Below are positions 4,086-41,538 of a stretch of 64,000 nucleotides of DNA, in pieces. Source of the stretch: Candidatus Poribacteria bacterium (GTDB taxonomy: Bacteria; Poribacteria; WGA-4E; WGA-3G). The stretch lies in the NCBI GenBank assembly GCA_028820635.1, contig JAPPIG010000108.1, positions 113,733 through 177,732 of the forward strand. Reading direction: 5' to 3'. A program made the position numbers and the translations under genes. Position 1 is the stretch's first letter. Each line of letters opens with the position of its first letter. The notes beneath the pieces were generated by a model, which saw only the letters and a program-made list of their open reading frames with translations, ran no database searches and was not told where the DNA came from.

Positions 4086-4877
4086 CTATTTAGTTGTAAG
4101 TGGTGTTTTGAGATGTCCCCAAACGGTAGCAAGTTTACCTACGGGATCAACGGCAAGATTTATCGGTTCGTCGCCTTCATAGACGAGTAAATCGTCTACG
4201 TAACCGGGGGCAGCAATAGAATACACATGGAAAACAACCCATTTGGCGACAGGATTTACGGCAGCATTCCGAAAAGGCAGCCCTTTCTTGCCTCTTGCTT
4301 TCAGTGCCTCGTTTCTGTCGTTACCTGCATAAAATTCAAATTCACTTTTGCTGACATCTGCGATGAGGCGAACGTATTTCCATTCATCCGTATCAAAGTC
4401 GTCAATAAGTTGCCATGCAGCACCATCGAAAAGGCGAGCAGTTTTGGCATCCCAATTGAGGTAAACTCCACCATTGTTTTGGGCAATATTATCAGCGGTT
4501 ACAACTTTGAAATTGAATGATCTGCCACCGCCTCCTATATATACCCAAAATTCAACTGATATGATGGGATTGTCAGTTTCTATAGCAATTCCAGTCCTAT
4601 CATCATTGGCACCCCCTAAAATAGCGAGAGCTTTCTTATCAGTTTTGGCTTTATCATTTGTCACCTCAAAACCATCCCCTCTCACTTCCCAATCTTTTGG
4701 TGGTTTTCCAAGCGTTTCTTTTTCAAATCCGGTTTGCACAAATACTTTTTGTGCTATAGCGGTTTGTCCTAAAGTGAGACTCAAGGTAAGCACGATAGCA
4801 AACATGAATCCCATCAAAAGCTTAGCAGTTCCTATTTCTACTGAATTGAGTCTAATGCGGAATCGGTTTCGATCCAT
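4086..4877 (-). CDS. Secreted protein of unknown function, paralog 1 of a tandem pair. Signal peptide present; a jelly-roll/LamG-like fold is suspected but unverified.
   Basis: 263 aa with an N-terminal hydrophobic signal (…TAIAQK). It is strongly similar along its whole length to the product of 5121..5906. Shared blocks include AQKV(F/L)VQTGFE, DWEVRG, ILGGANDDR, ISVEFWVYI, NIAQN-GGVYLNW and VVFHVYS. Confidence 0.65.
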   Translation of the reverse strand: MDRNRFRIRLNSVEIGTAKLLMGFMFAIVLTLSLTLGQTAIAQKVFVQTGFEKETLGKPPKDWEVRGDGFEVTNDKAKTDKKALAILGGANDDRTGIAIETDNPIISVEFWVYIGGGGRSFNFKVVTADNIAQNNGGVYLNWDAKTARLFDGAAWQLIDDFDTDEWKYVRLIADVSKSEFEFYAGNDRNEALKARGKKGLPFRNAAVNPVAKWVVFHVYSIAAPGYVDDLLVYEGDEPINLAVDPVGKLATVWGHLKTPLTTK

Positions 4878-4953
4878 TATTTTCTCCTTGATAACGTGTA
4901 CATGTAACTGCTATAGTAGTCTATCCAGTCTAAAATTGTAGGTATTAGCAATA

Positions 4954-5058
4954 GTCGGGAATCCAAATCAACGGTATGAATGCCATTTAGGCATTCCCCG
5001 GAGTTCCCTGCTACAAAGAGCAAACGGTCTTGGTAGGAGCGATCTCCGAATCGCGACC
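4954..5058. repeat. Interspersed inverted-repeat element (family IR-1: GTCGGGAATCGGAGTTCCCTCCTAC … GTAGGAGCGATCTCCGAATCGCGAC). This copy carries a nested hairpin insert.
   Basis: Related copies occur at 7321..7390 and 12063..12118. This copy has an internal aaatcaacggtatgaatgccatttaggcattcc insert that resembles the 36314 palindrome and part of the 32.3 kb REP cluster. Confidence 0.6.
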
Positions 5059-5120
5059 TATACCTATAAATTTTTCGTAGACAAAGCAATAGGTTACTAT
5101 CCGCAAAGGAAATCACTCTA

Positions 5121-5906
5121 TCAAAACGAGGAGTGTTTCTTGACATGCCCCCAGAATGTTGCCAGTTTTCCTTTTGGATCCACAGGCGTGAGGTTTGCTG
5201 GTTCTCTACCTTCGTAGATAAGTAAGTCATCTACGAAGCCTTGTGCGACTGTAGAGTAAACGTGAAAAACGACCCACTGCGCGACGGGATTTGTCGCAGC
5301 TTTCCGAAATGCGAGGTCCGTTTTGGGTTCAGCTGTCAGTGCGCCATCCCTGTCATTTCCCACGTAATAGTCAAATACACTATTCTCAACATTGGCAACA
5401 ATTCGGACGTATTTCCAAGTTTCAAACGGGAAGTCATCCACTGGGACCCAAGCGGAACCATTGTAAAGACGGGTCGCATTTTCATTCCAATTCAGATAGA
5501 CTCCACCATCGTTTTGTGCAATGTTGTCATCAGAAACAACTTTGAGATTGAAGGAACGACCAGCTCCCTTAATATATACCCAAAATTCAACAGAGATGAC
5601 AGGATTTTCAGTTTCTATGGCAACTCCAACTCTATCGTCATTCGCGCCACCTAAGATGCCAAGCGATTTATCACCGGTTTTGACAGTGTCGTCTGTTACT
5701 TGCATCTGATTACCTCGGACCTCCCAATCTGTTGGTGGTTCACCTAAAGTGAATTCCTCAAATCCGGTTTGCACTAAAACCTTTTGTGCAATTGCGGTTT
5801 GGACTGAAAAGAAGGTAAAGGTAAGTGCCACAACTAATATAAACGGTTGAATAAGATGTGTAATTCTCATTGATTGTGACTTGATGTCGTATAGGTTTTG
5901 GTTCAT
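5121..5906 (-). CDS. Secreted protein of unknown function, paralog 2 of the tandem pair
   Basis: 261 aa with signal peptide, roughly 55-60% identical to the 4086..4877 product. Confidence 0.65.
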   Translation of the reverse strand: MNQNLYDIKSQSMRITHLIQPFILVVALTFTFFSVQTAIAQKVLVQTGFEEFTLGEPPTDWEVRGNQMQVTDDTVKTGDKSLGILGGANDDRVGVAIETENPVISVEFWVYIKGAGRSFNLKVVSDDNIAQNDGGVYLNWNENATRLYNGSAWVPVDDFPFETWKYVRIVANVENSVFDYYVGNDRDGALTAEPKTDLAFRKAATNPVAQWVVFHVYSTVAQGFVDDLLIYEGREPANLTPVDPKGKLATFWGHVKKHSSF

Positions 5907-6120: not shown

Positions 6121-6903
6121 TTATGGCATCCAGATATTCCATTCACCTTTTTTCTGCCATGCGCGGCAATCATAGCACAGACACATATAACGGATAGCGA
6201 AGCGCGGGGAAGAATCAACATTTAATGTGTTGGCATGTGGTAACAGATGATGGAACAGAAGCACATCACCTTGTTTCGCAACAACTTCCATCGGTTCGCC
6301 TAAATCTATCTGTGGTAACAGTTGCAGCATAGACCGAACATGGCTTGAAGAATGCGGATTCTTTTTGCGGAACTCCCGAATCCTTTGTGGTCCTTCGGGC
6401 CATATCATCGTCGCTCCTTGATGGGAATTGGCATCGGTGAGATAGGTTAAACTTGATGCTCGAAAAGTGCCTGGGTCTAAACTTAAATCCCTTGAGTACC
6501 CATCAAGGTGAGGTGAAGGCGTATTCCACTCAGCAGAAATAGGAAATTGATTCATTGCCCAGATACTATCTGGATGTTGGCTTTTACAGTGTGGAATTGT
6601 CGGATATCTTTCGGCAAGTTGATTAAGGACGGTAAGATAATCTGGCGTGCAACACGCCAACACATCTGGATGCGTTAATCCGAAAAGTTCAATGCGCTTC
6701 TCATTCCACATCTTCTGTATGTAAAAGCCGGTGAGAAATGGGCGTTGGAAGTGTTCCCATGTGTCAGGATCGTCCGAGTCCATACCCATTGAATGCCACA
6801 TTGCTTGTTCCGCTTGGACGATAGTGTCTTTTGGGATCAAACCGGAAAGCAACAGATATCCTTCTTCTTCAAATTGATTTAGCTGCGCTGTTGAAAGCAT
6901 CAA
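6121..6903 (-). CDS. Phytanoyl-CoA dioxygenase (PhyH)-family Fe(II)/2OG oxygenase-like protein
   Basis: The N-terminus (LSTAQLNQFEEEGYLLL) is typical of the PhyH family. Length is 260 aa. Confidence 0.6.
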   Translation of the reverse strand: MMLSTAQLNQFEEEGYLLLSGLIPKDTIVQAEQAMWHSMGMDSDDPDTWEHFQRPFLTGFYIQKMWNEKRIELFGLTHPDVLACCTPDYLTVLNQLAERYPTIPHCKSQHPDSIWAMNQFPISAEWNTPSPHLDGYSRDLSLDPGTFRASSLTYLTDANSHQGATMIWPEGPQRIREFRKKNPHSSSHVRSMLQLLPQIDLGEPMEVVAKQGDVLLFHHLLPHANTLNVDSSPRFAIRYMCLCYDCRAWQKKGEWNIWMP

Positions 6904-6955
6904 ATGTCCCTTATTGTTTCAATACCAACAAAACATGAATGTAATAGTTAGAAGA

Positions 6956-7252
6956 CTAATGCGTTTTCACATATATCCACATCAAAAATATTCCCCAGAA
7001 AACAGCCAAGATCAAAAATGAGATGTTTGCAATAACCTTCGGTGGGTCGATATCAGACTTCTTCGCATTCACGAACATTTGTGAAAAGGCACTCCAGAAT
7101 ACTACGATTGCCCCCAATCCTAAAAGCCACAAAGAATGACTTTCTGCCATACTCGCAATTTGCAGAATCACTCCCACGCAAATTAGTATTGAACCTGCCA
7201 ACATTACTATGTCTACGATTTTTTTATTATCGCTCAGGAGGTTGAATTTCAT
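6956..7252 (-). CDS. Small membrane protein (98 aa, 3 predicted TM segments)
   Basis: Hydrophobic ORF with an ATG start. No recognisable family. Confidence 0.4.
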   Translation of the reverse strand: MKFNLLSDNKKIVDIVMLAGSILICVGVILQIASMAESHSLWLLGLGAIVVFWSAFSQMFVNAKKSDIDPPKVIANISFLILAVFWGIFLMWIYVKTH

Positions 7253-7320
7253 AGTAAACTCCCAATTTTGCTAATCTACCAGAACCATTCAATTCTCCAA
7301 TAATCGCATAGACTACATCT

Positions 7321-7390
7321 GTTTCTTCTTGTAGAAGCGATCTTCAAATCACGACAAAACACAATGATAGTCGGGAATCGGAGTTCCCTC
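7321..7390. repeat. IR-1 family interspersed element copy
   Basis: Contains gtagaagcgatcttcaaatcacgac … gtcgggaatcggagttccctcctac. Confidence 0.55.
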
Positions 7391-7415
7391 CTACAATACA
7401 ATTAAAAGGCTCTGG

Positions 7416-11300: not shown

Positions 11301-11849
11301 AAATATCCGCATTAGGCTGGTATGTGTTTCGGTAGGAAATAGAAGCGTAAGCAACCCACACGCTGCAATAACTAAAGTTGCTATACCGACAAATTTTCGC
11401 GTCCGACTATGATCAATCGTTGCTTTGAAATCAATACCTTTTATCCGTTGCGTCGTATCTTCAAGTAATCGCTGAAGCATGTGTGCTTCAACTGGGTCAT
11501 CTGATTCACGGTCACCGAATTGCACGGCACTCACAAGTCTATCCTCAAGATTAGGATGGCTTTCTTCAACATTGAGCGCAACATCTCGGAGGGTTAGTGA
11601 GGATCTCATCGGTTGAATAAGATATTTGATAAGTAGATATAGCGTCGCACCGATGATACCCACAAGCAGGGCAATACGAACAGCACTTGGCATCGGCATC
11701 AACCAATCAACGATTGATTCTCCAACCAGAATCGCTAAGAAACCTATCAGTACAATAGCAGCCCCTGTCCAGAAGAGGCTACGTTTCCACACACGCCGTG
11801 CATCTAAAATCCTTGTTTGTAATTCTGCATAATTTTCTCTGGTACTCAT
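8349..11849 (-). CDS. Large (1166 aa) membrane-anchored protein with a roughly 500-aa Q/E-rich coiled-coil, low-complexity C-terminal region. Possibly DUF4175-like; that family guess is unverified.
   Basis: Two N-terminal TM helices at about residues 25-75, and a third near 155-175. The central region is beta-rich and Ig-like. The C-terminal half is dominated by Q, E, L and A with heptad-like periodicity. It ends in a conserved-looking tail, PPEYRRLVDNYYESLAK. A single uninterrupted ORF immediately upstream of ppk2. Confidence 0.8.
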   Translation of the reverse strand: MSTRENYAELQTRILDARRVWKRSLFWTGAAIVLIGFLAILVGESIVDWLMPMPSAVRIALLVGIIGATLYLLIKYLIQPMRSSLTLRDVALNVEESHPNLEDRLVSAVQFGDRESDDPVEAHMLQRLLEDTTQRIKGIDFKATIDHSRTRKFVGIATLVIAACGLLTLLFPTETHTSLMRIFAPWEKTDPILTTKVNVTPGDARILSGKSLPIEVTVTGKDAEKVVLAYYDKNTPPTAENEGSKQEINMVQNPEDKRGFAYEIFNVNADMEYYVVANETTSERYTVEVFEMPRLEEISVSYTYPEYTNLKPVVQQGSGDIQAVVGTTAEVRLTANKAIQNATFTHQNSESETVVEEEGANEAVALKSSEMVIADGNILTKTLEVAEDGQYTVELFCIDGFNNEVPIEYTIKAMPDNAPVVVIKEPGRDVSATKLEEVKIVAGATDDYGIEQFNLMYRIGSGELKELALESTSEPVAEKTDGQYSKHLKTGAYTFYLEEFDVEPGEVISYYAHATDNNTLTGPGKASSEIYFIEVNPFNRRLEEGGECEIGTPNPFLTLIASQKQVIRETWKHTNAQPSTLTEEYNSAVKKTGEKQGEVKDKTQRVADELSFDMQEMQVDPEIMMNLEEAIDKMGEAKGNLDAIQPLVAIPPEQAALELLIKVNLEIPKILNQARQSEDPSLAENFELEMEELQSELEQDQEELERELQEQTQQMLEQAREMLAQQQNLNEQSQQMSKENQPSPSDMQQNSQQQGQLSQQAQQMSEQLSQMQGNAQGTQEQRLGQAGQAMQQASEQMQQASQGMQQQQPQMSAAKGGKAEEKLEQAIDQLERADAEFTDNALERASQQLQQLTAEQSGVQQQTQELRNKSQQSGMRPEDYRQASELANQQRQLQQDLESLQNDLGDLQQQLNQDNPEAAQNVGDASRRLNEEQTAEDMATAQRALQWRSLQSADLNQQEVIETLEEAQADLQQARANMAQTEEEQLEAALDQLQNFEEQMQDMDRELQGMEGQEQTEEQQQRQQQLTEQQQQLLERMQQAQQAMQNAQQGQQPGQEGQEGQQPGQEGQQGQGENENDLARGGAESYQEIKELWLGMLDAMQTPPGNRNRPFPKYELVIRDLQKLESAIEERLNMLQEMKQLAQVAKEDVPPEYRRLVDNYYESLAK

Positions 11850-12062
11850 TAATTTTCTCCTTCACCCATCTGCCGAAAAGGCAGGCTGGGTCAACTTCCA
11901 GATGTCCACCTATATTTGACGACAGTTCTTGGTGTAAGTTTTTAAAGGACTATGTTAATCTCGCAAAATTGTTTTTAACTGAAAACTATTCCCGTGATAT
12001 TGAATACATTTAGAGCGTATCTCATAAATAGGATTTGTTGGTTCGTTATCAGTTGATTCTCT

Positions 12063-12118
12063 TTGTAGGAGGGAACTCCGATTCCCGACAAGTCGCGATT
12101 CAGAGATCGCTCCTACAG
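12063..12118. repeat. IR-1 family interspersed element copy (opposite orientation)
   Basis: Contains ttgtaggagggaactccgattcccgac aa gtcgcgattcagagatcgctcctacagg. Confidence 0.55.
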
Positions 12119-12457
12119 GATTTTGAAATCGGGGTTACAAACCCCTCCAACTATTTATGAGATAGGTTGTAGTAAAAGTTAGATTAAAAACAGAATATCA
12201 GTGCCAATTTAAATAAAAAGATGATTAGTGCTGTAAAATACGCCTTAACTTGACATATCCCTATGAATTAGACACAATTGTCCCGAAAAAGTTTGAAAAA
12301 ATGCAGTCCTGATGCACATTTCACGAAAAATCTATGTTTTTAAATAATATAACAGAATTCTATATAGAATAGCAAGGAATTTTTGATTAAAAAACCAAGC
12401 AGGCAAATTTTGCAGTTTTATCCTGATTTCTATGGCTTTGATGTCGATCTACGCAAA

Positions 12458-19926: not shown

Positions 19927-22194
19927 TTACCCGAAAAAATCTGGGTTCTCAGTAAATTTTCGGTATTCCTTACAGATGGCGTTAAGGTCGTTAATCGGGT
20001 CTTTACGTCCTGTTGCGTCATAACCGATACGTTCAGCGATTGCCATAAAGATTGGATGATTGGCATTTTTCCGAACCCATTCTCGGATGTCCTCTGTGTT
20101 CTTATCAGTCCATTCCTCTTTAACAGCGTCAATCTTTTCCTTGTATGCTGCTTTTATTTTACTTTCCCACTCTGGATCGGCGGCATTTCTGAATGCTGCG
20201 CGGTATTCTTTCTCTAACGTGTTCAGATCGCTTGTTTGTGCCTTAAGTTCTGCACGTGCGGTTTGCGGGTCGAACAATTCAAATTCTGTGGTAGGCGTAG
20301 ACTCAATTTCTGGGAAGAAAAAAGCACTGAGGTCTTGGACCTTTTTGGTTGGTACTTTCTCAAGTTTCTGATTTAAGGCATCAATATTGTCCAAAATTGA
20401 GATGAATTGCTGTCTATAGTTTTCTGTTACGTCAACCTGTGCTGGAGAACCTTTTGCAATAATAGTTTGTCGTTCATTTTCAAGTTCCTCAATCTTGGGT
20501 GTATAGATTGTTTTATTTTTACTCTCGATTTGATCAATTGCATCTTGATAGCGTTCAAATTCCTGTTCCGAAAACTTTTGGAGGAATAGGATAGACGTTT
20601 TCACACCCGCACCATAATGTGAGAAAGCAATTTGTGGGAGCGAAACAACAGCGAGGATTTTAAAGTGGCGTTCAATGTAATCACGAACATATTGCAGTGA
20701 GGAGTTGGTCAAAATTCCATCTGGTAGGATAATCGCGAGTTTGCCTGTTTTCCACTTGAGAAAATCAAAACAACGTTCAAGAAACAGAATTTCTGTTTTT
20801 TGAGATGTGCCATTTTTACCAAGTTCATAATCTCTAAGATACGGAAGTTCTGACTGTTTGATAACTGCACCGAAAGGTGGATTAGTAAGGATTATATCAA
20901 ACTGATCCTTTTCAAATTCGCTATGCTGGTTGTAGAGGATATCAAAACCGACAAGCGCGTCATTACTGATAACGTTGCTATGCCCATCGTCATGGATAAT
21001 CATATTCATCTTAGCAACGCGGGCAATTGAGTCGTTAACTTCTATTCCGAAGAGACGTTTTTCAGCAAAGTCGTGCCAGTAGAGAAAATGATCACGACTT
21101 TCAGTTTCTTCATCGTAGAACTCGGATGCCTGTTTTCGGATGTAATCCATGGCGTGCAACAGAAAACCACCTGAACCGCAAGCGGGATCGAGGATTCGTT
21201 CTTCATGATCAGGTTTAACCATATCCACCATAAACTCAACCACATTGCGTGGTGTGAAAAACTGCCCGATTTCGCCTTTAAAAAAGTTTCCTAAAAACCG
21301 CTCAAATGCAACGCCTTTCACATCCAAATCGGTTTGGCTGAGACTAATTCCTTGCAAATGATTGACAACAGAAAACAAGAGATTATCATCGATTTCAATA
21401 TTCTCTGTAAATACCTCAGGGTCTAATGTTTTTGCCTCTTGATAGAGGCTGCTAATTCGGTTCGCAACGGATTCCGGTTTTTCATGTGTTTTAATTTGAA
21501 AATCGTAGGGTTTACCTTTTCGTCTCGACTTTTTCTCATCTCTAATTTTTATAAAAAGAATTTTGGCGAGTTCATCAAACGCTTGTGTAGGTGCAAATTT
21601 CCCACCTTGCCAAAGCGTATCGTGGCATTTCTCAAGGACACGGATGAGTTCGCCTCTTTCAATGACAGACAGTTCTGATTGTGGGACACCCTTTAGATAT
21701 CGCCACTCTTGAACTTTGCCATATCTGACTGGTGGATCGGCAATGATGTTTTGTGAACGTTCGCCCGGTTCATGGTTTTTGACATCAAAAGGTCTACGCG
21801 TATTTCCCGCAACGACAACGGCAAAATATCCACCCAAAGAGTTGCAGTTGCCAAAAACCTGTTCAATTGCCTGATTGAATTCTGCGTCAGAAATACCATC
21901 TTTTTTGCATTCAACCACAATAAAAGGGTCTTTCTTATCATCGTCTCGGAAAACGACAATATCGGCAAGATCAGAAGGGGTTCGACGTGGAACAGTTACC
22001 TCTAAATCAATTCGGTTTGGAGGGTATTGATAATGCTCAATTAACTCAACGTAAAATTTTGCGCGGACCTTTTCTTCAGGGTCAGTAAATCTATAATTTT
22101 TGTCGGGGGCTACGTAATGGATTCTTTTTCCATCATTAAGGAATTTGATGTATCCTTTTTGTTCTCCGATTTGGAGAAAGTCAGTTTGGTTCAT
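19927..22194 (-). CDS. hsdM: Type I R-M system DNA methyltransferase subunit HsdM (N6-adenine MTase), 755 aa with N- and C-terminal extensions
   Basis: Has the NPPFG catalytic motif (IILTNPPFGAV) and an AdoMet motif (LDPACGSGGFL). It is followed directly by hsdS. Confidence 0.85.
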   Translation of the reverse strand: MNQTDFLQIGEQKGYIKFLNDGKRIHYVAPDKNYRFTDPEEKVRAKFYVELIEHYQYPPNRIDLEVTVPRRTPSDLADIVVFRDDDKKDPFIVVECKKDGISDAEFNQAIEQVFGNCNSLGGYFAVVVAGNTRRPFDVKNHEPGERSQNIIADPPVRYGKVQEWRYLKGVPQSELSVIERGELIRVLEKCHDTLWQGGKFAPTQAFDELAKILFIKIRDEKKSRRKGKPYDFQIKTHEKPESVANRISSLYQEAKTLDPEVFTENIEIDDNLLFSVVNHLQGISLSQTDLDVKGVAFERFLGNFFKGEIGQFFTPRNVVEFMVDMVKPDHEERILDPACGSGGFLLHAMDYIRKQASEFYDEETESRDHFLYWHDFAEKRLFGIEVNDSIARVAKMNMIIHDDGHSNVISNDALVGFDILYNQHSEFEKDQFDIILTNPPFGAVIKQSELPYLRDYELGKNGTSQKTEILFLERCFDFLKWKTGKLAIILPDGILTNSSLQYVRDYIERHFKILAVVSLPQIAFSHYGAGVKTSILFLQKFSEQEFERYQDAIDQIESKNKTIYTPKIEELENERQTIIAKGSPAQVDVTENYRQQFISILDNIDALNQKLEKVPTKKVQDLSAFFFPEIESTPTTEFELFDPQTARAELKAQTSDLNTLEKEYRAAFRNAADPEWESKIKAAYKEKIDAVKEEWTDKNTEDIREWVRKNANHPIFMAIAERIGYDATGRKDPINDLNAICKEYRKFTENPDFFG

Positions 22195-22297: not shown

Positions 22298-23965
22298 TCA
22301 CGAAACTAAAGAACCTGAAGGCATCTCCTGCATCACAGGAATAACATAACTCCGAATCGTTAAACCCTCTATCGTTTCCGTTTCTACCTGCGGCTCTGGA
22401 TTCTCGCGATGATCAAAGACAATGTAATATCCCTCCGTTACGCCCTCAGTATTGAGATATACTGAAAGTTGCTTTTTGCCTGCCTGATAACGATTATCAC
22501 CTCTCCAAATTTTTGTTTCTACGATATATTTTCGCTGATTGTGAGTGATAATGATGTCCATTCTACCTCTGCCGGTCTGCACCTCAATATGCATAAAACC
22601 GCCAATGAGTTTAACAAATTGATCGAGATATGCAAGCAAAAGATGTCTGCCAACAGATTCTTGTGGCGTATCGGGGACTTGTAAAATCCTGAACCCTACA
22701 CGTGCGATAAAATCACGGAAGTTATCAAGTAATGACTCCATATCAATATGTCCGGCGGGTGTGAGATAATCAAGAAAACCTTCGCTATTACCTTCGGATA
22801 AGTAATCTTCTTCCAATCCATTCACAACTGCCTTGAATGCTTGTAAAATGCAATACAGATAAATTGGATTAATTATTTCACACATACCGTCATTACTTCT
22901 GGCAATGACACCATAAGTGGCAAGTTCACTGATAACGTCACTACGTAGATTAAAATCAACACCGTCCTCCCGTGCCATAATTCGCATCAGAACACTTTCA
23001 AAGCGTGGGTCTCTGCGGATATTGGTTGTTAGATGTGTAAGGTTAACGTTATCTTCCTCAAGGAGTTGTGCATGTGCTTTTGAGAAGTGTGCAAGCGTAA
23101 TCGGTTCAGTTTTCGGGATATCCAGTTCTTCGGTGAGAATCTGTGCAAATCGGTTGACAAGCACGGGTTGCCCAGCGGTTTGTTTATGAATGGATGTTAT
23201 AACTTCTGATGCGAAGGGTTGCCCGACTTCATCTGTATATTGCCCAAGCAGTTCCTGAACTTGTTCAAGCGTAAAGTTGGGTAGGTGGAACTCATCTTGG
23301 ATATTGAATGGAGAAATTGAGCGGTCATAGTTGAGCTGCGCAATACTCTTAACCCCGACGATACCGACACTATGTGGACATCGCGGCTTGCCCGCAATAT
23401 AGATATGACGAAGTGTATGCAGAAAATCGCTTACTGCGACTTGAGGAATGCCATCAAATTCGTCAATGACAAGAACAAACTGCTGCCCAGCATACTCAGA
23501 GTCTAAAAAACTCGAGAGCCGTTTAAAAAACGATAACATTGAAAGGTGGTTTGTTAATGTCGTGTTCTCCAAAAATTGATGTAAATTCGCAGAAGGGACA
23601 ATACCACGTTTTTGAAAGACTGCTTCTATTTCTTCACGAATCTGTTCGGACAAATGTGCATAAAATGCCGACAAGTCAAGGTTTTTATAGATGTCAAAAT
23701 TTAGTTGAATAGGGAGGCAGTTAAATTTTGGATCAGATTTGACTTGCGTAGCAGAAGCGTTTGGCATAGTGCCGACAGTGAGAGTTTCTAATGCAGCTTG
23801 GAAGAAGGTCGTTTTGCCTGTTTGACGTGGTGCGAAAAGGACAACATATTTGCCTTGTTCGACACGTTTAATGTAGTCGACAATTTCTTCGGTTCGCGAA
23901 ACGACATAATGCTCTTGAGGGTTTACGGGACCTTGTGTGCCAAAACGTCTCATTTTTTTCTCCAT
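22298..23965 (-). CDS. AAA-ATPase-like protein with a C-terminal PD-(D/E)xK nuclease-like domain
   Basis: Walker A motif (APRQTGKTTF) and Walker B motif (FVLVIDEFD). A C-terminal D…E-x-K arrangement (MDIIITH … YIVETK) suggests a PD-(D/E)xK domain. Length is 555 aa. Confidence 0.65.
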   Translation of the reverse strand: MEKKMRRFGTQGPVNPQEHYVVSRTEEIVDYIKRVEQGKYVVLFAPRQTGKTTFFQAALETLTVGTMPNASATQVKSDPKFNCLPIQLNFDIYKNLDLSAFYAHLSEQIREEIEAVFQKRGIVPSANLHQFLENTTLTNHLSMLSFFKRLSSFLDSEYAGQQFVLVIDEFDGIPQVAVSDFLHTLRHIYIAGKPRCPHSVGIVGVKSIAQLNYDRSISPFNIQDEFHLPNFTLEQVQELLGQYTDEVGQPFASEVITSIHKQTAGQPVLVNRFAQILTEELDIPKTEPITLAHFSKAHAQLLEEDNVNLTHLTTNIRRDPRFESVLMRIMAREDGVDFNLRSDVISELATYGVIARSNDGMCEIINPIYLYCILQAFKAVVNGLEEDYLSEGNSEGFLDYLTPAGHIDMESLLDNFRDFIARVGFRILQVPDTPQESVGRHLLLAYLDQFVKLIGGFMHIEVQTGRGRMDIIITHNQRKYIVETKIWRGDNRYQAGKKQLSVYLNTEGVTEGYYIVFDHRENPEPQVETETIEGLTIRSYVIPVMQEMPSGSLVS

Positions 23966-24985: not shown

Positions 24986-25537
24986 CTATTGCGAAGAAAT
25001 GGAATCAGTCAACTTTGGGAACCACCGTGAAAAGAAATCGATCGCCTCAGCATCCTGGCGATGGGGGGCAAGCTGATATCTACCTATGCAGGATTCTGAA
25101 TAAGATATGGCATAGATACCAATAACATTTACGCCAATCGCGACAACACCAACGGCATTACAACCGATTGCGATCACTCCAACTGCGTTTGTACCGATAG
25201 CAACAATCCCTAAAGCGTTGACACCGAATGCAAACCCGCCGACCACATTAATCCCCATAGCGATTATGCCAACGGAAAAAATGCCTAATGTGAAAATGCC
25301 GAGGGTACGAATGCCTAATGTAATAACACTATAATGAATGTTCTTTCCTTCAAGTGTAGCCCCCATATCCATAAACCAAGAAATGAGTAGTTGTGAAAAC
25401 TCCCAGTTAGTTATAGATATGCAAACAGTAATGAAAGTAATGAATGTTATTATTATTGCATAAACGATACTCAATCTAATCAAATATGGTTTCAACAAAT
25501 TTTTAAAGTTTGTTATATCTTGCGGGGTATCTTTCAT
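24986..25537 (-). CDS. Membrane protein with tandem 8-residue repeats (consensus roughly AIGxNAxG, about 8-9 copies)
   Basis: 183 aa with an N-terminal TM segment. The C-terminal half reads GINVVGGFAFGVNALGIVAIGTNAVGVIAIGCNAVGVVAIGVNVIGIYAI. The underlying DNA shows a 24-bp periodicity. Confidence 0.5.
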   Translation of the reverse strand: MKDTPQDITNFKNLLKPYLIRLSIVYAIIITFITFITVCISITNWEFSQLLISWFMDMGATLEGKNIHYSVITLGIRTLGIFTLGIFSVGIIAMGINVVGGFAFGVNALGIVAIGTNAVGVIAIGCNAVGVVAIGVNVIGIYAISYSESCIGRYQLAPHRQDAEAIDFFSRWFPKLTDSISSQ

Positions 25538-25550
25538 CTAAGTTGTTTCC

Positions 25551-26648
25551 TTATTTTAGCTGGGTGTTGCCAGAATTAACAATCCATCCACCACCAAGAA
25601 CATATTCACCGTCATAAAAGACGGTAGCTTGACCTGGGGTAATTGCACGACGAGGTTCATCAAACTTAACAACTGCTTCTGTATCACTAAAGGGAGTAAT
25701 TGTCGCTGGACCACCTTCATCGCGAGAACGGATTTTGACGTGCGCGCGTATCGGTTCCGTCAACTTTTCAATAGCAATAAGATTGATACGTTCAACATGC
25801 ATAGTATCTTCAAGGAGATCGTCCGGTTCGCCGACAACGACAGTATTATCTTTCGCGTTGATCTGCGTTACATAGAGTGGTTTGCCAACTGCGATGCCAA
25901 GACCGCGCCGTTGCCCGACGGTGTAAAATGGTACGCCTTGATGCTTGCCGAGAACTTTGCCTTCCTTGTCAATAATATCACCGCTTTCAATCTTTTCAGG
26001 AATTCTGTCTTGAAGAAAACGTCTATAATTGGTATCTGCCACGAAGCAAAGTTCTTGGCTTTCAATCTTTTCGGCAGTTCGCAACTGATACTTTCGGGCA
26101 AGGTCGCGCACCTCAGTTTTCGTGTATTCACCGAGGGGCATCAGGGCACATCGCAATTGTTCCTGTGTTAACGCAGCGAGGAAATAGGATTGATCTTTGC
26201 TGACATCAAGTGCTTTTCTTAACAGATAACGTCCTGTTTCAGGATGCTGCTCAATTCGGGCATAGTGTCCAGTTGCAATTGCTTCACATTCCAATGTTTT
26301 TGCGAGGTCAAGCAGCTTTCCAAATTTGAGTTCTCGATTACATACCATGCATGGACTGGGTGTGCGACCAACCAGATATTCTTCCACAAAGTAGTCAATA
26401 ATCTGTTCTTGGAAAATATCCTCATAGTTCACACCGTAGAAAGGGATGCTAAGTTGTGTAGCAACACGCCTTGCATCCTCTATGCCTTCAAGTGAGCAGC
26501 AGTTGGGACGTTCCGGTTCAACCTCTATTGTATCGGGTGCACCAAGACGCATCGTGATGCCAGTGACATCATAACCTGCATCAACCATCATGGCAGCGGT
26601 AACGGAACTATCTACACCACCGCTCATTGCGACGAGAATCTTTTTCAT
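25551..26648 (-). CDS. mnmA: tRNA-specific 2-thiouridylase MnmA
   Basis: PP-loop motif MSGGVDSSV, and a conserved Cys in the CMVCN block. Length is 365 aa. Confidence 0.9.
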   Translation of the reverse strand: MKKILVAMSGGVDSSVTAAMMVDAGYDVTGITMRLGAPDTIEVEPERPNCCSLEGIEDARRVATQLSIPFYGVNYEDIFQEQIIDYFVEEYLVGRTPSPCMVCNRELKFGKLLDLAKTLECEAIATGHYARIEQHPETGRYLLRKALDVSKDQSYFLAALTQEQLRCALMPLGEYTKTEVRDLARKYQLRTAEKIESQELCFVADTNYRRFLQDRIPEKIESGDIIDKEGKVLGKHQGVPFYTVGQRRGLGIAVGKPLYVTQINAKDNTVVVGEPDDLLEDTMHVERINLIAIEKLTEPIRAHVKIRSRDEGGPATITPFSDTEAVVKFDEPRRAITPGQATVFYDGEYVLGGGWIVNSGNTQLK

Positions 26649-26967
26649 GGGACTACCCAGTTAGGTTAGAAATTTGGTGTAAAATACAGTACGCTTAAGC
26701 CAGCGGTGTATCTATCGATTTGCTTATAATTATACCACATAATAGCGGATTTGTCAGGAAAAATTCTTGGACTATTAGAAAGGAATCGGACCATTATAGG
26801 GTTAATCCGGCACAGCAAGCGGTTAGCGGAAAGGAAAAAGAGAGTCGTTTTCAGAATATCATTAGTTAGGCAATACCTTCCAATAAAAAGCCAGCCGAGA
26901 TGGCTGGCTTTGCTCTTTAGACTCTTTAGTGTGCTGGTACTGAAGAAGTAGCTGAAAGTCATTTTCT

Positions 26968-27621
26968 TTAGCGATTGCTCTTTAATTTACCCCATGTCGT
27001 CGTGAGTTTGTCCGTTGCCTCCACAGCAGCCCCTTCGACACCACGCGTTAGGAACACCCAGTACATCGGAGCCAAGTTTGCAGGTGCATCGTTATTACCA
27101 CCGAGAGATATGTCACCTGCGGAAAACTCCTTGTTCAGAAGGACGAAAATATCTGTATCCTCCTCATTGGTTTGGACCAAATAATCAGGCTGCTCTTTCC
27201 ATCCATTACCGTCTGAGGCCCATTTTGGCGGATTTCCCCATCTTTTGTCAGTAGCCAGCCAAACGACTATAGGGACTTTAACTCTAAATGTGATGAAATC
27301 AGCACCTTTAGAACGTTCATCCTCCATTGCTGTCATGATAAACGTTGCGCCTTCGAACTCTTCTGACATATCCTTAACAAAATAATCCCTGTCAATGAGA
27401 TAGACACTACCTAATTCAAGGCCCTCCTCGCCCACAACGTACTTGCCGACAACACTTCTCGATTTGAGATCAATGACTTCTATATCCTCGACAATTATAT
27501 CTTGTGCCAGAACTTCAGGAAAATAAAAAGATGCCAAGATAAAACAAGGCAAAATTAAACACGCAAATCTTTTGATATACATCATACACTTCCCCTTTTT
27601 TCTGTTCATATAGTAAAACAT
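26968..27621 (-). CDS. Secreted protein of unknown function (217 aa, signal peptide)
   Basis: N-terminal hydrophobic segment followed by AQD. No recognisable family. It lies inside a segment bounded by the mnmA 5'-end duplication. Confidence 0.5.
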   Translation of the reverse strand: MFYYMNRKKGKCMMYIKRFACLILPCFILASFYFPEVLAQDIIVEDIEVIDLKSRSVVGKYVVGEEGLELGSVYLIDRDYFVKDMSEEFEGATFIMTAMEDERSKGADFITFRVKVPIVVWLATDKRWGNPPKWASDGNGWKEQPDYLVQTNEEDTDIFVLLNKEFSAGDISLGGNNDAPANLAPMYWVFLTRGVEGAAVEATDKLTTTWGKLKSNR

Positions 27622-27653
27622 ATAATTACTTGAACACTATTGGTGGCGCGCTT

Positions 27654-27708
27654 ACAAAGCGTGCCTACCTGTGAATGTCCAAGGCGCAATGAATTGCGCG
27701 ACTACAAA
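27654..27708. repeat. Adjacent REP-A hairpin (ggcgcgcttacaaagcgtgcc) and REP-B hairpin (gcgcaatgaattgcgcgactacaa)
   Basis: REP-B copies are also at 36172..36198 and 41413..41438. REP-A copies are also at 13706..13730 and three times in 32271..32398. Confidence 0.6.
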
Positions 27709-27775
27709 CGCCGCTAACCTAAATAAAATGTAAAGATATATTTAGATTTCACTATATACCGCTGCAAGCAATGCC

Positions 27776-27830
27776 AGAACTATCTACGCCACCGCTCATT
27801 GCGACGAGAACTTTCTTCATGGGATTACCC
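27776..27830. repeat. Roughly 55-bp duplicated copy of the mnmA 5' end (start codon plus first about 15 codons), forming an imperfect direct repeat with 26604..26659
   Basis: Alignment of ggaactatctacaccaccgctcattgcgacgagaatctttttcatgggactaccc against agaactatctacgccaccgctcattgcgacgagaactttcttcatgggattaccc gives about 50 of 55 identities. The second copy encodes only MKKVLVAMSGGVDSSGIACSGI and then a stop. Confidence 0.75.
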
Positions 27831-27861
27831 GGGAGTTATGACACACGGTCTGTGCCTACTA

Positions 27862-29025
27862 TTATGAGACTTGCCAATGCTCATTACCAGCGTAACGGGC
27901 ATCATACACATCTTGATTGAATTCTAAACCGAGTCCGGGGGTATCAGGTACTGTGAACGTACCATCGTTGAATCCGTAGCCAGAAACATCAATCACATCA
28001 CTGGTGAGGGTTGCGACTTCTCCATAGAGAAAATGCGGGATCGTCTTTGCGAATTGGAGGCTGAGGAAAAAACCGAGCAGAGAACCCCAGTTATGCGGTG
28101 CACATTTGACGTTGCCCGCAGCAGCCATATCGGCAAGCCGCCGCCAACCCGTAACGCCAAGACCTTTCATATCATGTTGGATAACATCAATTACACCTGC
28201 TTCAAAGAACGGATCGTAGAATTCAAGCGGAGCACGGGTGCGGGTCTCGCCATCAGCGATTAAAGTCTTCAATCCCTTTTCTTGGATATAAGCCTTCAGA
28301 TTGCGGTATAACTCAACATCCTCTTCAAACATCTCCTCAATCCAGAACACATCACAGTTGCTTGTCTCATTCAGAAAGGTAATAACTTCATCATAAGTAT
28401 ACGCGTTGTTCGCATCAACAAGGATATTAAAATCTTCCCCAGCAGTGCTACGTGCAAGTTGGACAACTTCTATATCACGCTGTAATCCTGCTTTGCGTTC
28501 CATAAGATGATTCCCGCGTCCCATTTTCATTTTGCACGCTGTAAATCCATCAGCCAAACTCTTTTTGACATCATCCTCAATCCGCTTAAGCCCTTCAGCT
28601 TCCGTTTCGTAAAGGAGATCGTTAAAATATATGGTGCTATCGTAAGCGGGTAATCCATTGCCGTAGGATTCAGTTCCCATGAGTTGATAAGCGGGTTTTT
28701 CAAGGATTTTTCCTATAGTATCCCACAGAGCATTTTCAAATCCGCGGTATGCTTCAACGACTCCATTTTCAGGATTCAACAGTTCAAAAGGATTCTTGTT
28801 TAGAGCAGATTTTGCTTCTTCAGCAGAAGAACCCCAACTGGTAGGTCCCCATCCAAGTGTGCCATCGTTGGTGTAGATACGGGTAATTCCTTCACGCCAC
28901 TTCCCATTTGGGTCTGGCTGTTTTATCTCTTTGGCACCAGAGTTGCAACCGATGGCGGGTTGGTCAATCTCAACTGTAACCTGCTCAATTTTGGTAATTT
29001 TGATGTCCGATGGATAGTTCGGCAT
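27862..29025 (-). CDS. Enolase-superfamily enzyme (mandelate racemase / muconate lactonizing enzyme / acid-sugar dehydratase family)
   Basis: 387 aa. Contains the MR-family KMKMG(R)G region and D/E/D metal-ligand-like blocks (ILVDANNAY, WIEE, LIADGE). Confidence 0.65.
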   Translation of the reverse strand: MPNYPSDIKITKIEQVTVEIDQPAIGCNSGAKEIKQPDPNGKWREGITRIYTNDGTLGWGPTSWGSSAEEAKSALNKNPFELLNPENGVVEAYRGFENALWDTIGKILEKPAYQLMGTESYGNGLPAYDSTIYFNDLLYETEAEGLKRIEDDVKKSLADGFTACKMKMGRGNHLMERKAGLQRDIEVVQLARSTAGEDFNILVDANNAYTYDEVITFLNETSNCDVFWIEEMFEEDVELYRNLKAYIQEKGLKTLIADGETRTRAPLEFYDPFFEAGVIDVIQHDMKGLGVTGWRRLADMAAAGNVKCAPHNWGSLLGFFLSLQFAKTIPHFLYGEVATLTSDVIDVSGYGFNDGTFTVPDTPGLGLEFNQDVYDARYAGNEHWQVS

Positions 29026-29131: not shown

Positions 29132-30352
29132 TTATTCTTCAGTCTCATCCTTTTCAAGCTCAAGAAGTAGTTCGTTGAGCACACCATTTACCGTGGGGTT
29201 AGTTTCTTTATTTCTATAATAATCGTCGAGTTTATGCGGTAAATTATCATAGGGGTCTGCTGTTTGAATTTGCTTGATCAGTGCTGGTTTTTTAAGCAAT
29301 TGGACAATAAAAACTCTATCTTCGTGATTAGAGATAGAAATCTCGATGTCTATCAACAACTTGATTAAACGTGATGCCAATCCGTCTGCAAGACCAATTT
29401 CAGCATAGTGACTTAGGGTTTCTACAACAGTCCTTTTCGTGTTAATACTGGAATCGTTGGTTAGCATACTAAACAAGTTATCTACTGCGTTTTTATCAGT
29501 ATGTTTTTCTAATGCTTGGACAATAGCTAACCGAACTGTATCATCAGCGTCCTTAAGTGCCTTGATCATTTTGTCAGTAGACGGTTGATTGAGCAATATC
29601 ATTGATCTCGCGGCGGCTTGGCGTGCTAAAACATTATTATCGGTCAAAGCTGCCTCAATGTCTTTTTGGTATGCTTTATTGCCGAGTCGATATAGGGCGG
29701 AAAGAATCTCTATCTTCAACCCAGTATCCAATACTGTGTTTTTAAGAGATTCTAACCTTTCCTGGGCCGAAGGATCTCCGATATCTGCGATAATACGTAT
29801 CAATCTATCCCTGACTGGAATAGAGGTATCTGCGTTATCTACTGCGGTGAAGAGTTCATCAATGCCTTTGCTGCCGATCTGTGTCAGGATATAGTCGAAA
29901 TCTTTATGGGCATCGGAATACTTTTTTTCAATAAAACTCTTCAAAATGAGTGGTATGACAGGGATACCTTTATCAATTAGGATTTGTCTGACATCATTTT
30001 GAAAGAGATGTCTCTCATTAAGGATTTGAAAGATTTCTTCCGTCTCAGATGTGTTCAGTTCAGCAAGACGCCGTGCCCGTTCATTCCGATATTCGGTTTC
30101 CAAATTGTTGCTCTTTAGCCACGTGGCATCCGCAGAAAGTGCGTAACTATACGCAATTAGCAGGAGTGCCCGAGGTTCATCCTTATTTTTTTCTTCTATT
30201 TCGGCAAGTTTGAGATGGCTAACTGCTTCTATTGCGAGACCAGCTAATAATTTTTGTCTGCCCGGTTTAAGTTCAGGAATGATTTTTTCCTGCTTACAGC
30301 CAAACGACACAACCCATGTTAAAACGAGGCATATCGTTAAAAGTTTTTTCAT
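29132..30352 (-). CDS. HEAT/PBS-lyase-type repeat lipoprotein, paralog 1
   Basis: Lipobox (VSFGC). Repeated about 30-aa helical units with D/N-x-x-V-R-x-x-A-x-x-A-L signatures. Length is 406 aa. Confidence 0.65.
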   Translation of the reverse strand: MKKLLTICLVLTWVVSFGCKQEKIIPELKPGRQKLLAGLAIEAVSHLKLAEIEEKNKDEPRALLLIAYSYALSADATWLKSNNLETEYRNERARRLAELNTSETEEIFQILNERHLFQNDVRQILIDKGIPVIPLILKSFIEKKYSDAHKDFDYILTQIGSKGIDELFTAVDNADTSIPVRDRLIRIIADIGDPSAQERLESLKNTVLDTGLKIEILSALYRLGNKAYQKDIEAALTDNNVLARQAAARSMILLNQPSTDKMIKALKDADDTVRLAIVQALEKHTDKNAVDNLFSMLTNDSSINTKRTVVETLSHYAEIGLADGLASRLIKLLIDIEISISNHEDRVFIVQLLKKPALIKQIQTADPYDNLPHKLDDYYRNKETNPTVNGVLNELLLELEKDETEE

Positions 30353-30646: not shown

Positions 30647-31852
30647 CTATTTTCTAATATCGTTGAGTAGTTCATTGAGTTCAACTTTTACAAATGCACT
30701 CTCTTCTTCATTTTGGATATAATTGTAAAGTTTAGTTTCAAGTTCATCATCAAATAACGTTGCTGCCTTTAGCTGCTTCACCATCCGTTTTTTGAGAAAT
30801 TGCACTAACATCAAGCGGTCATCTGAATTGTTCACCTCTTTATTGATAAGTAAATACGTCATGCGACTTGCTAACCCTCTTGTAAGACCGCCGCCTGCTT
30901 CAATATAGGTAGCAAGCGTATTTAAGACAGCTTGCTTCGCTTTTGAGCTATGCTCACTTTTGATTATATTTACAAATGGTTCTACAGCATTTTTGGTTTT
31001 GTGTACAGATAAAGCCTTTGCAATGTCAGTAACTACCTGGGAATCATCGTCTTTAAGTGCCGTGATAAGCATGCTTGTGTTGACATTTTTAAGGTTAGCC
31101 ATTGCTTTTGCTGCAGCACGTCGCACCTCTACTTCATTTGCTGTTAGTCCTGCAAGAATTTCAGTTTTATATTTTCTATCACCGAGTTGATAAAGGGTCG
31201 TATAAACTGCCATTTTGAGCGCATCGCTCATGCCGGTTGTATCAATAGATTTTAATCTTTCAGCCGCTTTCTCATCCCCAATTTCGCCGAGCACCTGAAT
31301 TAGTTTCATTTTTATAGCAGGATTCACCTCTGCATCGGCTATGCTATCTAAGATAGGCTCAATCGTCTTAGTTCCCATTTGCTCAAGTGCCGAAATAAGA
31401 TTCTTCTGTATATCTGGATATAAACCTTGGGCAAGATTATCAATTATTAAAATAGCAGCGTCTGTTCCTTTCTGAACCAATGCTTGAAACCCAGCTTGTT
31501 GGATTTCCGAACGTTTGTTGAGAATTTCGATCATTTTGTTGATCTCTGCTTCATTCAAGGCTGCTATTCTTTGAGTTTTCTGTTTTTTATATTCTGATTC
31601 AAAATCCTGTCCCTTTGTCGCATCTGATGCAAGCGCGTGTGAGTATGCTATTACGAGCAGTGCACGCGGCTCTGTTTTATCTTCCTCTTTTTTCTCTGCC
31701 TCTATGAGAAGATTAATAGCTTCAACAGCGTTTCCACTTTCAATAAGTTTATCTCGCCCAACCGACAGATAACTGGGACCTTTCTGTTTCGTATCACAAC
31801 CAAAGCAAATAAATAAGATTAAAATCAGTGGAATAATTGCAAGATTTTTCAT
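30647..31852 (-). CDS. HEAT/PBS-lyase-type repeat lipoprotein, paralog 2
   Basis: Lipobox (CFGC). Same architecture as the neighbouring gene, with shared blocks such as EPRALL(L/V)IAYS(Y/H)AL(S/A)(A/D)AT and VR..AA.(S/A)M. Length is 401 aa. Confidence 0.65.
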   Translation of the reverse strand: MKNLAIIPLILILFICFGCDTKQKGPSYLSVGRDKLIESGNAVEAINLLIEAEKKEEDKTEPRALLVIAYSHALASDATKGQDFESEYKKQKTQRIAALNEAEINKMIEILNKRSEIQQAGFQALVQKGTDAAILIIDNLAQGLYPDIQKNLISALEQMGTKTIEPILDSIADAEVNPAIKMKLIQVLGEIGDEKAAERLKSIDTTGMSDALKMAVYTTLYQLGDRKYKTEILAGLTANEVEVRRAAAKAMANLKNVNTSMLITALKDDDSQVVTDIAKALSVHKTKNAVEPFVNIIKSEHSSKAKQAVLNTLATYIEAGGGLTRGLASRMTYLLINKEVNNSDDRLMLVQFLKKRMVKQLKAATLFDDELETKLYNYIQNEEESAFVKVELNELLNDIRK

Positions 31853-36087: not shown

Positions 36088-36313
36088 TATAGCACGCTTG
36101 AAAAACCGATGCTATTGTAAAACTAATACCAATTCTATAAATTATTTTCTCTTTTGAAAAGAAATGTAAGAGGCGCAATGAATTGCGCGACTACAAAGGG
36201 TCTATTTCTTTAAGAGTAGTTATTTTTTAGGAATGGTATAACAGTAGGAAGCCATTCAGTTTTATGTTTATGAGTATAGAGGCTGCTATGTGCCCTGTTT
36301 AGAAACAACGATG

Positions 36314-41358: not shown

Positions 41359-41538
41359 AAAAGTTGCATCTTTTTTTGTATTTCTTGAATAATTTGTAAA
41401 AATAATGTAAGAAGCGCAATGAATTGCGCGACTACAACGCTACAAGAAAAAACCTTAATGACAATTTTGAAGGTCTAAACCTACATAAACCGACATTAAG
41501 GTTATTGTGAAATATCTTTTACGATTTGAGTTGATTAG

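Follow-up and report, generated by a model that had tools for sequence, protein, structure and literature searches.

A p205 gene cassette that probably spread among Poribacteria by recombination at a duplicated mnmA start

In a stretch of 64,000 nucleotides (nt) from a Candidatus Poribacteria genome (GenBank assembly GCA_028820635.1, contig JAPPIG010000108.1, positions 113,733 to 177,732; the window in what follows), the gene mnmA, encoding a tRNA 2-thiouridine synthase, is preceded by a second, dead copy of its own start. Between the two copies lies a cassette of about 1.16 kb with a gene, here called p205, for a protein with a signal-peptide-like N-terminal segment. We propose that this cassette probably spread by homologous recombination at the mnmA repeat, in a way resembling the minimal mobile elements (MMEs) of Neisseria, and that its left arm acts as a portable pseudo-5′ end of mnmA. 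The proposal derives from sequence comparison of the locus across the phylum, which indicates an exchange of the cassette between species, a wide distribution of the junction behind the dead copy and a variable gene content of the site.

The mnmA repeat and the exchanged block

The loci of 80 Poribacteria species representatives, fetched with mnmA as the query and so unbiased toward carriers of the insert, were annotated by tblastn and blastn searches and by an nhmmer profile for mnmA starts; L-numbers denote comparison loci. All parts listed lie on the minus strand, mnmA nucleotides are numbered from the start codon, and a position in the window equals 32649 minus the locus position (the window having been reverse-complemented). 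A repeat search revealed an ungapped direct repeat of 54 nt (26605–26658 and 27777–27830; 49/54 identical, 91%; spacing 1172 nt). When the window was shuffled 100 times, a pattern search for it with three mismatches allowed never matched by chance. The repeat spans −10 to +44 of the mnmA start codon, and the profile, built from 80 live mnmA starts, aligned the upstream copy over mnmA nt 1–54, referred to here as the core. A first-pass annotation, made from the letters of the window, had reported a duplication of about 55 bp at about 91% identity, with a dead 22-codon remnant as the upstream copy, and both observations hold: the remnant's reading frame (27820..27752, ATG at 27820) is dead, comprises 22 codons and reads MKKVLVAMSGGVDSSGIACSGI followed by a stop. 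The two copies in the window differ at five positions (AAG AAA GTT...GGC vs AAA AAG ATT...GGT), and of the four that lie in codons three are synonymous. Since each copy matches the live mnmA region of a different lineage, the 9% divergence is an allelic difference between two once-functional mnmA leaders and 5′ ends of different origin, not decay that followed a duplication.

On the minus strand the order is enolase-family gene, 41-nt spacer, remnant, a short junction sequence (J), a 142-nt insert, p205, a terminator, a region that we call P_B and live mnmA (table 1). The enolase-family gene lies upstream of mnmA in 76 of the 80 species loci. In 27 of these 76 the two genes are at most 100 nt apart, and in 13 mnmA starts 44 nt from the last enolase codon, as it does, with the stop codon counted, in the insert-free loci L006, L013 and L041. 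The ATG of the remnant likewise stands exactly 44 nt past the last enolase codon. Because this offset equals that of the insert-free sisters, the remnant occupies the ancestral mnmA start site, the upstream copy being native in position, and it is the live mnmA start, together with its predicted promoter, that arrived with the insert. The direct adjacency of mnmA and the enolase-family gene in relatives, anticipated in the first-pass annotation, was thus found, and its suggestion of an insertion and a gene gain is borne out for the window's clade.

P_B contains a sigma-70-like promoter (CTGACA-17-TATAAT, TG-extended, 26757..26729), which scored 11/12 against the consensus in a promoter scan. 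Its identity to the sequence preceding the remnant is 86–92% in L018 and L083 and only 71–77% in L059 and L052, and P_B also matches the region upstream of live mnmA in the cassette-free loci L020, L029, L047, L051, L055 and L068. From P_B and the terminator-like hairpin behind p205 we infer that mnmA in the window now has its own predicted promoter; in the insert-free sisters mnmA is presumably read through from the enolase gene, as only 41 nt separate the two.

The block between the cores is far more alike between species than its flanks, and for this reason the alignments show it, at the level of sequence, to have been exchanged laterally between species. Nucleotide identity of the window to L007 and L011 is 72–73% in the HEAT-repeat gene heat406 and 88% in the enolase gene, 97–98% in p205 and 98–99% in P_B, and then 84–89% in mnmA and 85–86% in miaA. 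Expressed as mismatches, the left flank, block and right flank differ by 12.6%, 1.9% and 15.2% from L007 (Fisher p 3e-35) and by 12.1%, 3.0% and 14.2% from L011 (Fisher p 3e-24), and the mismatch of the block to L014 is 0.3%. Conservation is as high in the non-coding parts of the block (1–2/155 and 5–10/~309 mismatches to L007/L011), so selection at the protein level cannot explain the pattern. The synonymous divergence (dS) of p205 is 0.07–0.08 within the clade, vs 0.29–1.06 for the four flanking genes, the values of the window against L007 and L011 being 0.6–1.06 in these genes; between clades it is 0.28–0.43, vs 1.1 to more than 2.5, or saturation, for the flanking genes.

The breakpoints of identity fall inside both copies of the core. 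Remnants in general carry a disabling SGG>SRG change (AGCAGAGG) or a close variant, the exceptions being those of the window and L014 and the truncated remnant of L070. The remnant of the window is identical over nt 1–44 to the live mnmA of insert-free L013 (with one mismatch in L006) and is free of the SGG>SRG decay, yet it has the derived CATTGCT in common with L003, L007 and L011, to which the window is near-identical from remnant nt 48 onward. The window/L014 remnant is therefore a chimera, of the native functional type over nt 1–44 and of the cassette type from about nt 48, with a putative crossover at nt 30–47. In L003, L007 and L011 the left breakpoint lies at or before about nt 10, and on the right side the breakpoints vary as well, the first falling at or before nt 15 and the last at nt 33. 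Over the 1,333 nt that lead up to +32 of live mnmA the window and L014 show only 5 mismatches, followed by about one per 10 nt from +33; L014 shares the left flank and the cassette at 97–100%, and dS is 0.71 in mnmA vs at most 0.11 to the left. Beyond the first ~60 nt, mosaicism of mnmA is uninformative for the right crossover, mnmA being uniformly 80–90% identical to that of all relatives. At the level of the wider locus, identity between the window and L014 drops rightwards from about 99.6% to about 86% at the mnmA start (window position 26616, nt +33), so that this start also bounds a larger recombination tract.

Table 1. Features of the enolase–mnmA locus in the window.
Feature	Position	Strand	Basis or remark
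Enolase-superfamily gene (MR_MLE, sugar-acid dehydratase-like), conserved left flank	27862..29025	-	Pfam MR_MLE_C 4.5e-41
Native enolase–mnmA spacer, A-type, 41 nt, small hairpin	27821..27861	-	Same length and close sequence in insert-free L006, L013, L041
mnmA′ remnant	27767..27820	-	mnmA nt 1–54; nhmmer E 6e-14
Junction J (tgcagcggtatat), non-mnmA sequence joined after nt 54	27754..27766	-	Common to remnants of other lineages
Hairpin-rich insert, 142 nt, REP/MITE-like (see text)	27612..27753	-	Only in the window's clade; TATAT on both sides
p205, 205 amino acids, signal-peptide-like N-terminal segment, beta-rich fold	26968..27585	-	Conserved ribosome-binding site; gene-caller start
agaaaATGA directly after the p205 stop	26959..26967	-	p205 3′-flank alignment
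Intrinsic-terminator-like hairpin downstream of p205: AAAGCCAGCC-ATCTC-GGCTGGCTTT, then TTTATT	26887..26911	-	
P_B, mnmA upstream region of the B-type Poribacteria lineage	26649..26854	-	Homology to B-type loci
98-amino-acid reading frame, not a gene	26666..26962	-	Spans terminator and promoter; no family match
Live mnmA (tRNA 2-thiouridine synthase)	25551..26648	-	Pfam tRNA_Me_trans 2.5e-72, plus M and C domains
Second repeat copy, live mnmA nt 1–54	26648..26595	-	nt 1–32 within the exchanged block
Unit of lateral exchange	26617..27773	-	Near-identical between species with 12–15% divergent flanks

The remnant junction and the enolase–mnmA site in other Poribacteria

No homology to mnmA extends past nt 54 of the remnant, where J begins, and the same joint is found in at least 12 other species or contigs of deeply diverged lineages, mostly with shared decay mutations. 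J itself recurs in L003, L007, L011, L014, L018, L083 and L052 and in variant form in L048, L058, L085, L042, L073 and L059, the sequence around nt 54 of the remnants being ...CACTGCT followed by tgYagcgg.atat. Outside the window's clade J is followed at once by the p205 ribosome-binding site and its ATG. Additional mnmA starts were detected in p205 loci only: 10 of the 18 carriers have one at E<1e-3, L042 and L073 show weaker matches, and two metagenome contigs, L083 and L085, carry one as well. The nhmmer profile found none in the 62 non-carriers. All matches with E<1e-4 stop at profile position 54, which leaves about 35 nt to p205. The joint of remnant and J is ancient, travels with p205 in many Poribacteria lineages and was not made in this genome. 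A recent, private junction has to be given up, as relatives contain the same duplicated arrangement, a finding that the first-pass annotation had itself named as speaking against an insertion junction.

Three different sequences precede the remnant: in the window's clade it follows the enolase spacer, in L018, L083, L052 and L059 it follows P_B, and in L070 it comes after a LamG gene and its stop codon. It follows that only the mnmA core would be needed for integration. The remnant of L070 is truncated at about nt 26. An independent junction in this locus was considered, but the truncation is probably more simply explained as an insertion/deletion of a hairpin repeat in the same junction, with the downstream atagtgaaat common to L070 and the window.

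An alignment of the p205 3′ flank shows that the ATGA of mnmA coincides exactly with the post-p205 ATGA in L018, L042 and L070, and that the longer, window-like flank (actttcag...) is also present in L048, L058, L052 and L023. The possibility that the abutting p205–mnmA form is ancestral and the window form derived from it by circularisation at ATGA was dismissed, as a agaaaATGActttcag 3′ flank occurs in several non-abutting lineages. Because the longer flank is common to other lineages, the abutting form appears to be the derived one, made by a microhomology deletion at ATGA. In the B-type loci L028, L053, L061 and L064 only the final 33 nt of p205 are left, abutting mnmA, and such genomes indicate that losses occurred too.

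The enolase–mnmA junction holds at least seven different cargos across the 80 species. It is empty in 27, p205 occupies it in 18, and unrelated cargo is found in others. The latter include a TaqI/Eco57I-type N6-methylase with a partner reading frame, a TauD dioxygenase, a LamG lectin-like secreted protein, an ABC-2 permease with an ECF sigma factor and four different TnpB genes (OrfB_IS605 plus Cas12f1-like TNB) in different species (L018, at about 4160–5600; L028; L034; L048). The carrier L042 has a close relative, L024, with an empty site. These contents suggest that the junction acts as a recombination hotspot of the MME type, and mark it as a place of gene flow in Poribacteria. A separate observation concerns L018, in which p205 is split by a TnpB element.

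The cargo gene, the hairpin insert and the surroundings

The first-pass annotation had given the cargo protein 217 amino acids, a size that we correct to 205 (204 from the second ATG), adopting the start chosen by the gene callers, which follows a conserved ribosome-binding site. An exact-sequence look-up of the 217-amino-acid frame returned no match, and p205 itself has no match in Pfam, NCBIfam or PADLOC. The gene is under purifying selection (ratio of non-synonymous to synonymous divergence, dN/dS, 0.15–0.32) and is confined to Poribacteria-type metagenomes; a scan of metagenome contigs with p205 yielded two loci only, L085 and L086, both of the B-type arrangement. A distant homologue with 55% identity (P0044; L084, 2199–2825) lies away from mnmA, with genes for a DUF5060/apiosidase-like glycosidase and for a GFO_IDH_MocA oxidoreductase on its two sides. 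As this context, beside a glycosidase-like gene, is unrelated to the mnmA locus, the p205 family exists away from mnmA, and the setting hints at a carbohydrate-related role and at the original home of the family. Restricted to this lineage and spreading faster than the host genomes diverge, p205 is a candidate symbiosis factor.

A near-identical C-terminal tail, ...AVEA.(D/G)KL(T/A)(T/I)TWG.LK.., ends p205 and otherwise unrelated predicted secreted proteins, namely a LamG/Laminin_G_3 protein and the product of a reading frame of about 290 codons. It is located at 26968–27000 (the p205 C-terminus), at about 5900–5965 in L045, L060, L066, L072 and L075, and at 11310–12173 (minus) in L006, 8172–9038 (minus) in L032, 2557–3459 (minus) in L053 and 6535–7413 (minus) in L061. 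The tail may be a sorting or anchoring tag specific to Poribacteria.

The 142-nt insert between J and p205 is 98.6–100% identical across all five carriers of the window's clade and is absent from L018 and L083, in which J continues straight into the p205 upstream region. Folded as DNA it reaches −20.2 kcal/mol (z −3.5). Its edges read cggTATAT before agtgaaatc and gttttacTATAT before gaacag, and the TATAT flanks look like a short target duplication of an element resembling miniature inverted-repeat transposable elements (MITEs). A 27-nt GC-rich hairpin core of the GCGCAATTCATTGCGC type is present at 27682–27708, 36171–36197 and 41414–41437, and also in L019 (four times), L015, L006 and L011. 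Dispersed copies, as are typical of repetitive extragenic palindromic (REP) sequences and MITEs, were found for this core, the full 142 nt not being recurrent; the core is a REP-like family. An Rfam scan of the whole window returned no family, and the hairpins are not a known RNA. The first-pass annotation had thus rightly noticed REP hairpins between the mnmA copies, their placement being corrected here to the 142-nt insert at 27612–27753. It had likewise called a 98-amino-acid reading frame in the same segment dubious, and we regard this frame as spurious, as it is not conserved even in the closest relatives (stops interrupt it in L011 and L003, and in L007 it is truncated).

Several further features of the surroundings deserve mention. 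For the enolase-family gene, the NCBIfam dehydratase matches were all below threshold. Upstream of it are two tandem paralogous HEAT-repeat genes (406 and 401 amino acids; 29132–30352 and 30647–31852) with lipoprotein-like N-termini, and the 406-amino-acid one is fast-evolving between species (dN 0.2–0.37 vs 0.02–0.1 for the enolase gene). On the other side, a gene for a 183-amino-acid membrane protein between mnmA and miaA (24986–25537) is present in the window and absent from L014 and many species, and the mnmA–miaA interval is thus a second variable junction. Downstream of miaA, on the minus strand, are an AAA_35/DUF8371 ATPase gene and an MmeI-type restriction-modification gene (N6_Mtase/Eco57I/MmeI_Mtase), at 19927–22194 and 22298–23953, likely a defence islet beside the hotspot; L083 also has an MmeI-type gene after miaA.

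Mode of spread, alternatives and known systems

The cassette would have been founded, probably, by a single homology-facilitated illegitimate recombination (HFIR) of a fragment reaching from p205 to mnmA into mnmA at nt 54. From then on, DNA carrying the remnant, J, p205, the terminator, P_B and the mnmA 5′ end would recombine with an insert-free chromosome in a RecA-type reaction, with the left crossover in the 54-nt core (nt 30–47) and the right one in or just past the live core. Because the left arm copies the 5′ end of the right-flank gene itself, both arms would match the same recipient sequence, and the recipient would gain an insert and a second core instead of having its own sequence replaced. 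The recipient would need mnmA only, whatever lies upstream, and the promoter and 5′ codons supplied by the cassette would keep mnmA intact. Homologous recombination is the best supported mode because no transposase, integrase or terminal inverted repeat was found: the block holds no mobility genes, p205 being its sole conserved reading frame and one without a family match, and there are no terminal inverted repeats at or near 26650–26660 or 27760–27775. A one-step HFIR directly into the window's lineage was considered as well and is ruled out by the joint of nt 54 and J being common to distant lineages.

Several points weigh against this account. Recombination is known here from comparative inference only, and the different species are defined by separate GTDB species representatives and four flanking genes. 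The five A-type carriers are monophyletic in the enolase tree, and a single ancestral gain with later homogenisation is a possible explanation of their near-identity. No donor with the exact long form (p205, terminator, full P_B, mnmA) was found outside the window's clade. P_B, moreover, is circularly permuted relative to the B-type carriers, standing downstream of p205 and not upstream of the remnant; this could be accounted for equally well by an intermediate in circular form or by a recombinase acting in trans, and a transient ancestor with P_B on both sides fits too. Finally, an arm of 54 nt, or 30–47 nt in practice, is short for efficient RecA-dependent exchange.

The permuted P_B is what would be predicted if a site-specific recombinase encoded elsewhere moved the cassette as a circle of core, J, p205, terminator and P_B. 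The cassette would then be a small integrative element or what is left of one, with the mnmA 5′ end as attB and an attP mimicking the promoter and 5′ codons, so that integration yields attL (the remnant) and attR (the live start). Such an element would also account for the direct repeats of the target on both sides of the insert, for the supply of a predicted promoter and new in-frame 5′ codons, and for the use of one site in three upstream contexts. However, no integrase or recombinase gene occurs in or beside the block across about 20 carrier loci, the left and right breakpoints vary between lineages instead of marking a fixed crossover site, and the short B-type form, with p205 abutting mnmA, moved to its new context in L070 without P_B, for which a linear double crossover is the better fit; we therefore judge an integrative element unlikely. 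Vertical inheritance of an ancestral arrangement, the insert-free genomes having arisen by repeated deletion between the direct repeats and with no lateral transfer at all, agrees with the monophyly of the A-type carriers, with the last 33 nt of p205 left as deletion remnants in L028, L053, L061 and L064, with the resemblance of the abutting form to an ATGA-microhomology deletion and with the ease with which direct repeats permit precise deletion. It is nevertheless very improbable in our view: dS in the cassette is 8–13 times below that of the flanks within the clade and at least 3–6 times between clades, non-coding cassette sequence is 97–99% identical between the window and L007/L011 against 85–88% in the flanks, nt 1–44 of the window's remnant are of the intact native type, free of the old shared decay mutations, and the P_B upstream of its live mnmA is that of the other clade.

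The first-pass annotation had read the locus as a recent insertion that duplicated its target or, alternatively, as an illegitimate recombination junction. The first of these readings would amount to a private insertion of a transposable element with a target-site duplication of about 55 bp. Repeats in the same orientation do flank a gene-bearing segment, and relatives do have an empty site, but transposase target duplications are typically 2–15 bp, far below 54 nt, neither a transposase nor terminal inverted repeats were found, the copies differed from the outset by allelic, mostly synonymous substitutions, and the junction is common to many species, with older states of decay. This origin is hardly credible, and what stands of the earlier account is the observation itself together with the insertion and gene gain, while the target duplication and the private or recent junction fall away. 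An artefact of assembly or binning, in which co-occurring strains were joined at the conserved mnmA start, might be suspected from the metagenomic source of the window and from the sharp window/L014 breakpoint within a highly conserved stretch of 54 nt. The arrangement is present, however, in at least six independent assemblies from different samples, including chromosome-level records of 4–5 Mb (e.g. L003, OZ244889.1, 5.24 Mb) and a re-assembly from Logan that does not differ from the window, and in every case the remnant, the cassette and both flanks are on one contig, so that an artefact is extremely improbable.

Spread by homologous recombination at the repeat can be extended, although only tentatively, to a more far-reaching picture, in which the p205 cassette is a recombinase-free 'homing' unit, whose left arm, mnmA nt 1–54, serves as a decoy and whose right arm supplies a substitute promoter and 5′ end. 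Such a unit could insert upstream of mnmA in any Poribacteria genome, leaving the gene unharmed, irrespective of the neighbour and with its arms regenerated; it would be self-perpetuating, possibly via a circle, and may have swept sympatric sponge-symbiont species, perhaps because a secreted, possibly glycan-binding protein is of benefit in the host. Whatever the fate of this extension, the locus suggests exchange of gene content between uncultivated sponge-symbiont species without mobile-element machinery, with a crossover visible within a 54-nt repeat, and implies that a gene start found in duplicate beside a housekeeping gene is not necessarily the scar of a transposon, as it may serve a recombination cassette as a portable arm of homology.

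Among known systems, integration of the Campbell type ('ends-in') yields the same order of target, insert and target with hybrid repeats, and the permuted P_B fits it; the left and right breakpoints of the window do not coincide, however (about nt 47 vs nt 32 or earlier), which speaks against a single crossover unless later changes intervened. Elements of the SXT/R391 family integrate at the 5′ end of prfC. As there, the insert described here has entered a housekeeping gene related to translation at its 5′ end, is flanked by direct repeats of the target and brings a new predicted promoter and 5′ codons that would keep the gene functional; unlike those elements, it measures 1.2 kb only, has no integrase or conjugation genes, shows variable crossovers and is bordered by a diverged 54-nt repeat instead of a short identical core.

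The HFIR model reportedly goes back to work published in 2002 by de Vries and Wackernagel and by Prudhomme et al. A passage of PMC5361080 summarizes it. Consistent with HFIR are an end anchored in a conserved gene (mnmA) and another joined without homology, at nt 54 and J, as well as a displaced gene fragment beside a new module, comparable to the orphan fragments of type VI secretion system and Rhs arrays. The locus differs in that the displaced fragment is a 5′ end and not a 3′ end. HFIR would, moreover, account for no more than the one ancient event that made the junction, whereas homology at both ends was apparently used in the spread that followed, the event in the window among it. No remnant-free donor next to mnmA was found among the loci compared, the distant homologue P0044 being in an unrelated context.

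The MMEs of Neisseria were reportedly described by Saunders and Snyder in 2002. An MME is recognized by variable content between fixed conserved genes in close relatives, by an identical organisation in distant genomes and by exchange through the flanking homology (PMC3787668). The enolase–mnmA locus agrees with this description in its variable gene content between the same conserved flanks, in the same organisation, with a cassette more alike than its flanks, in distant genomes, in the lack of mobility functions and, as proposed here, in movement by homologous recombination in the flanks. It departs from it in that the left arm is not a neighbouring gene, being a 54-nt pseudo-copy of the 5′ end of the right-flank gene carried inside the cassette, and in that integration would duplicate the core, independently of the upstream neighbour. 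Conceptually, the step beyond MMEs and insertion-duplication recombination is thus a small one.

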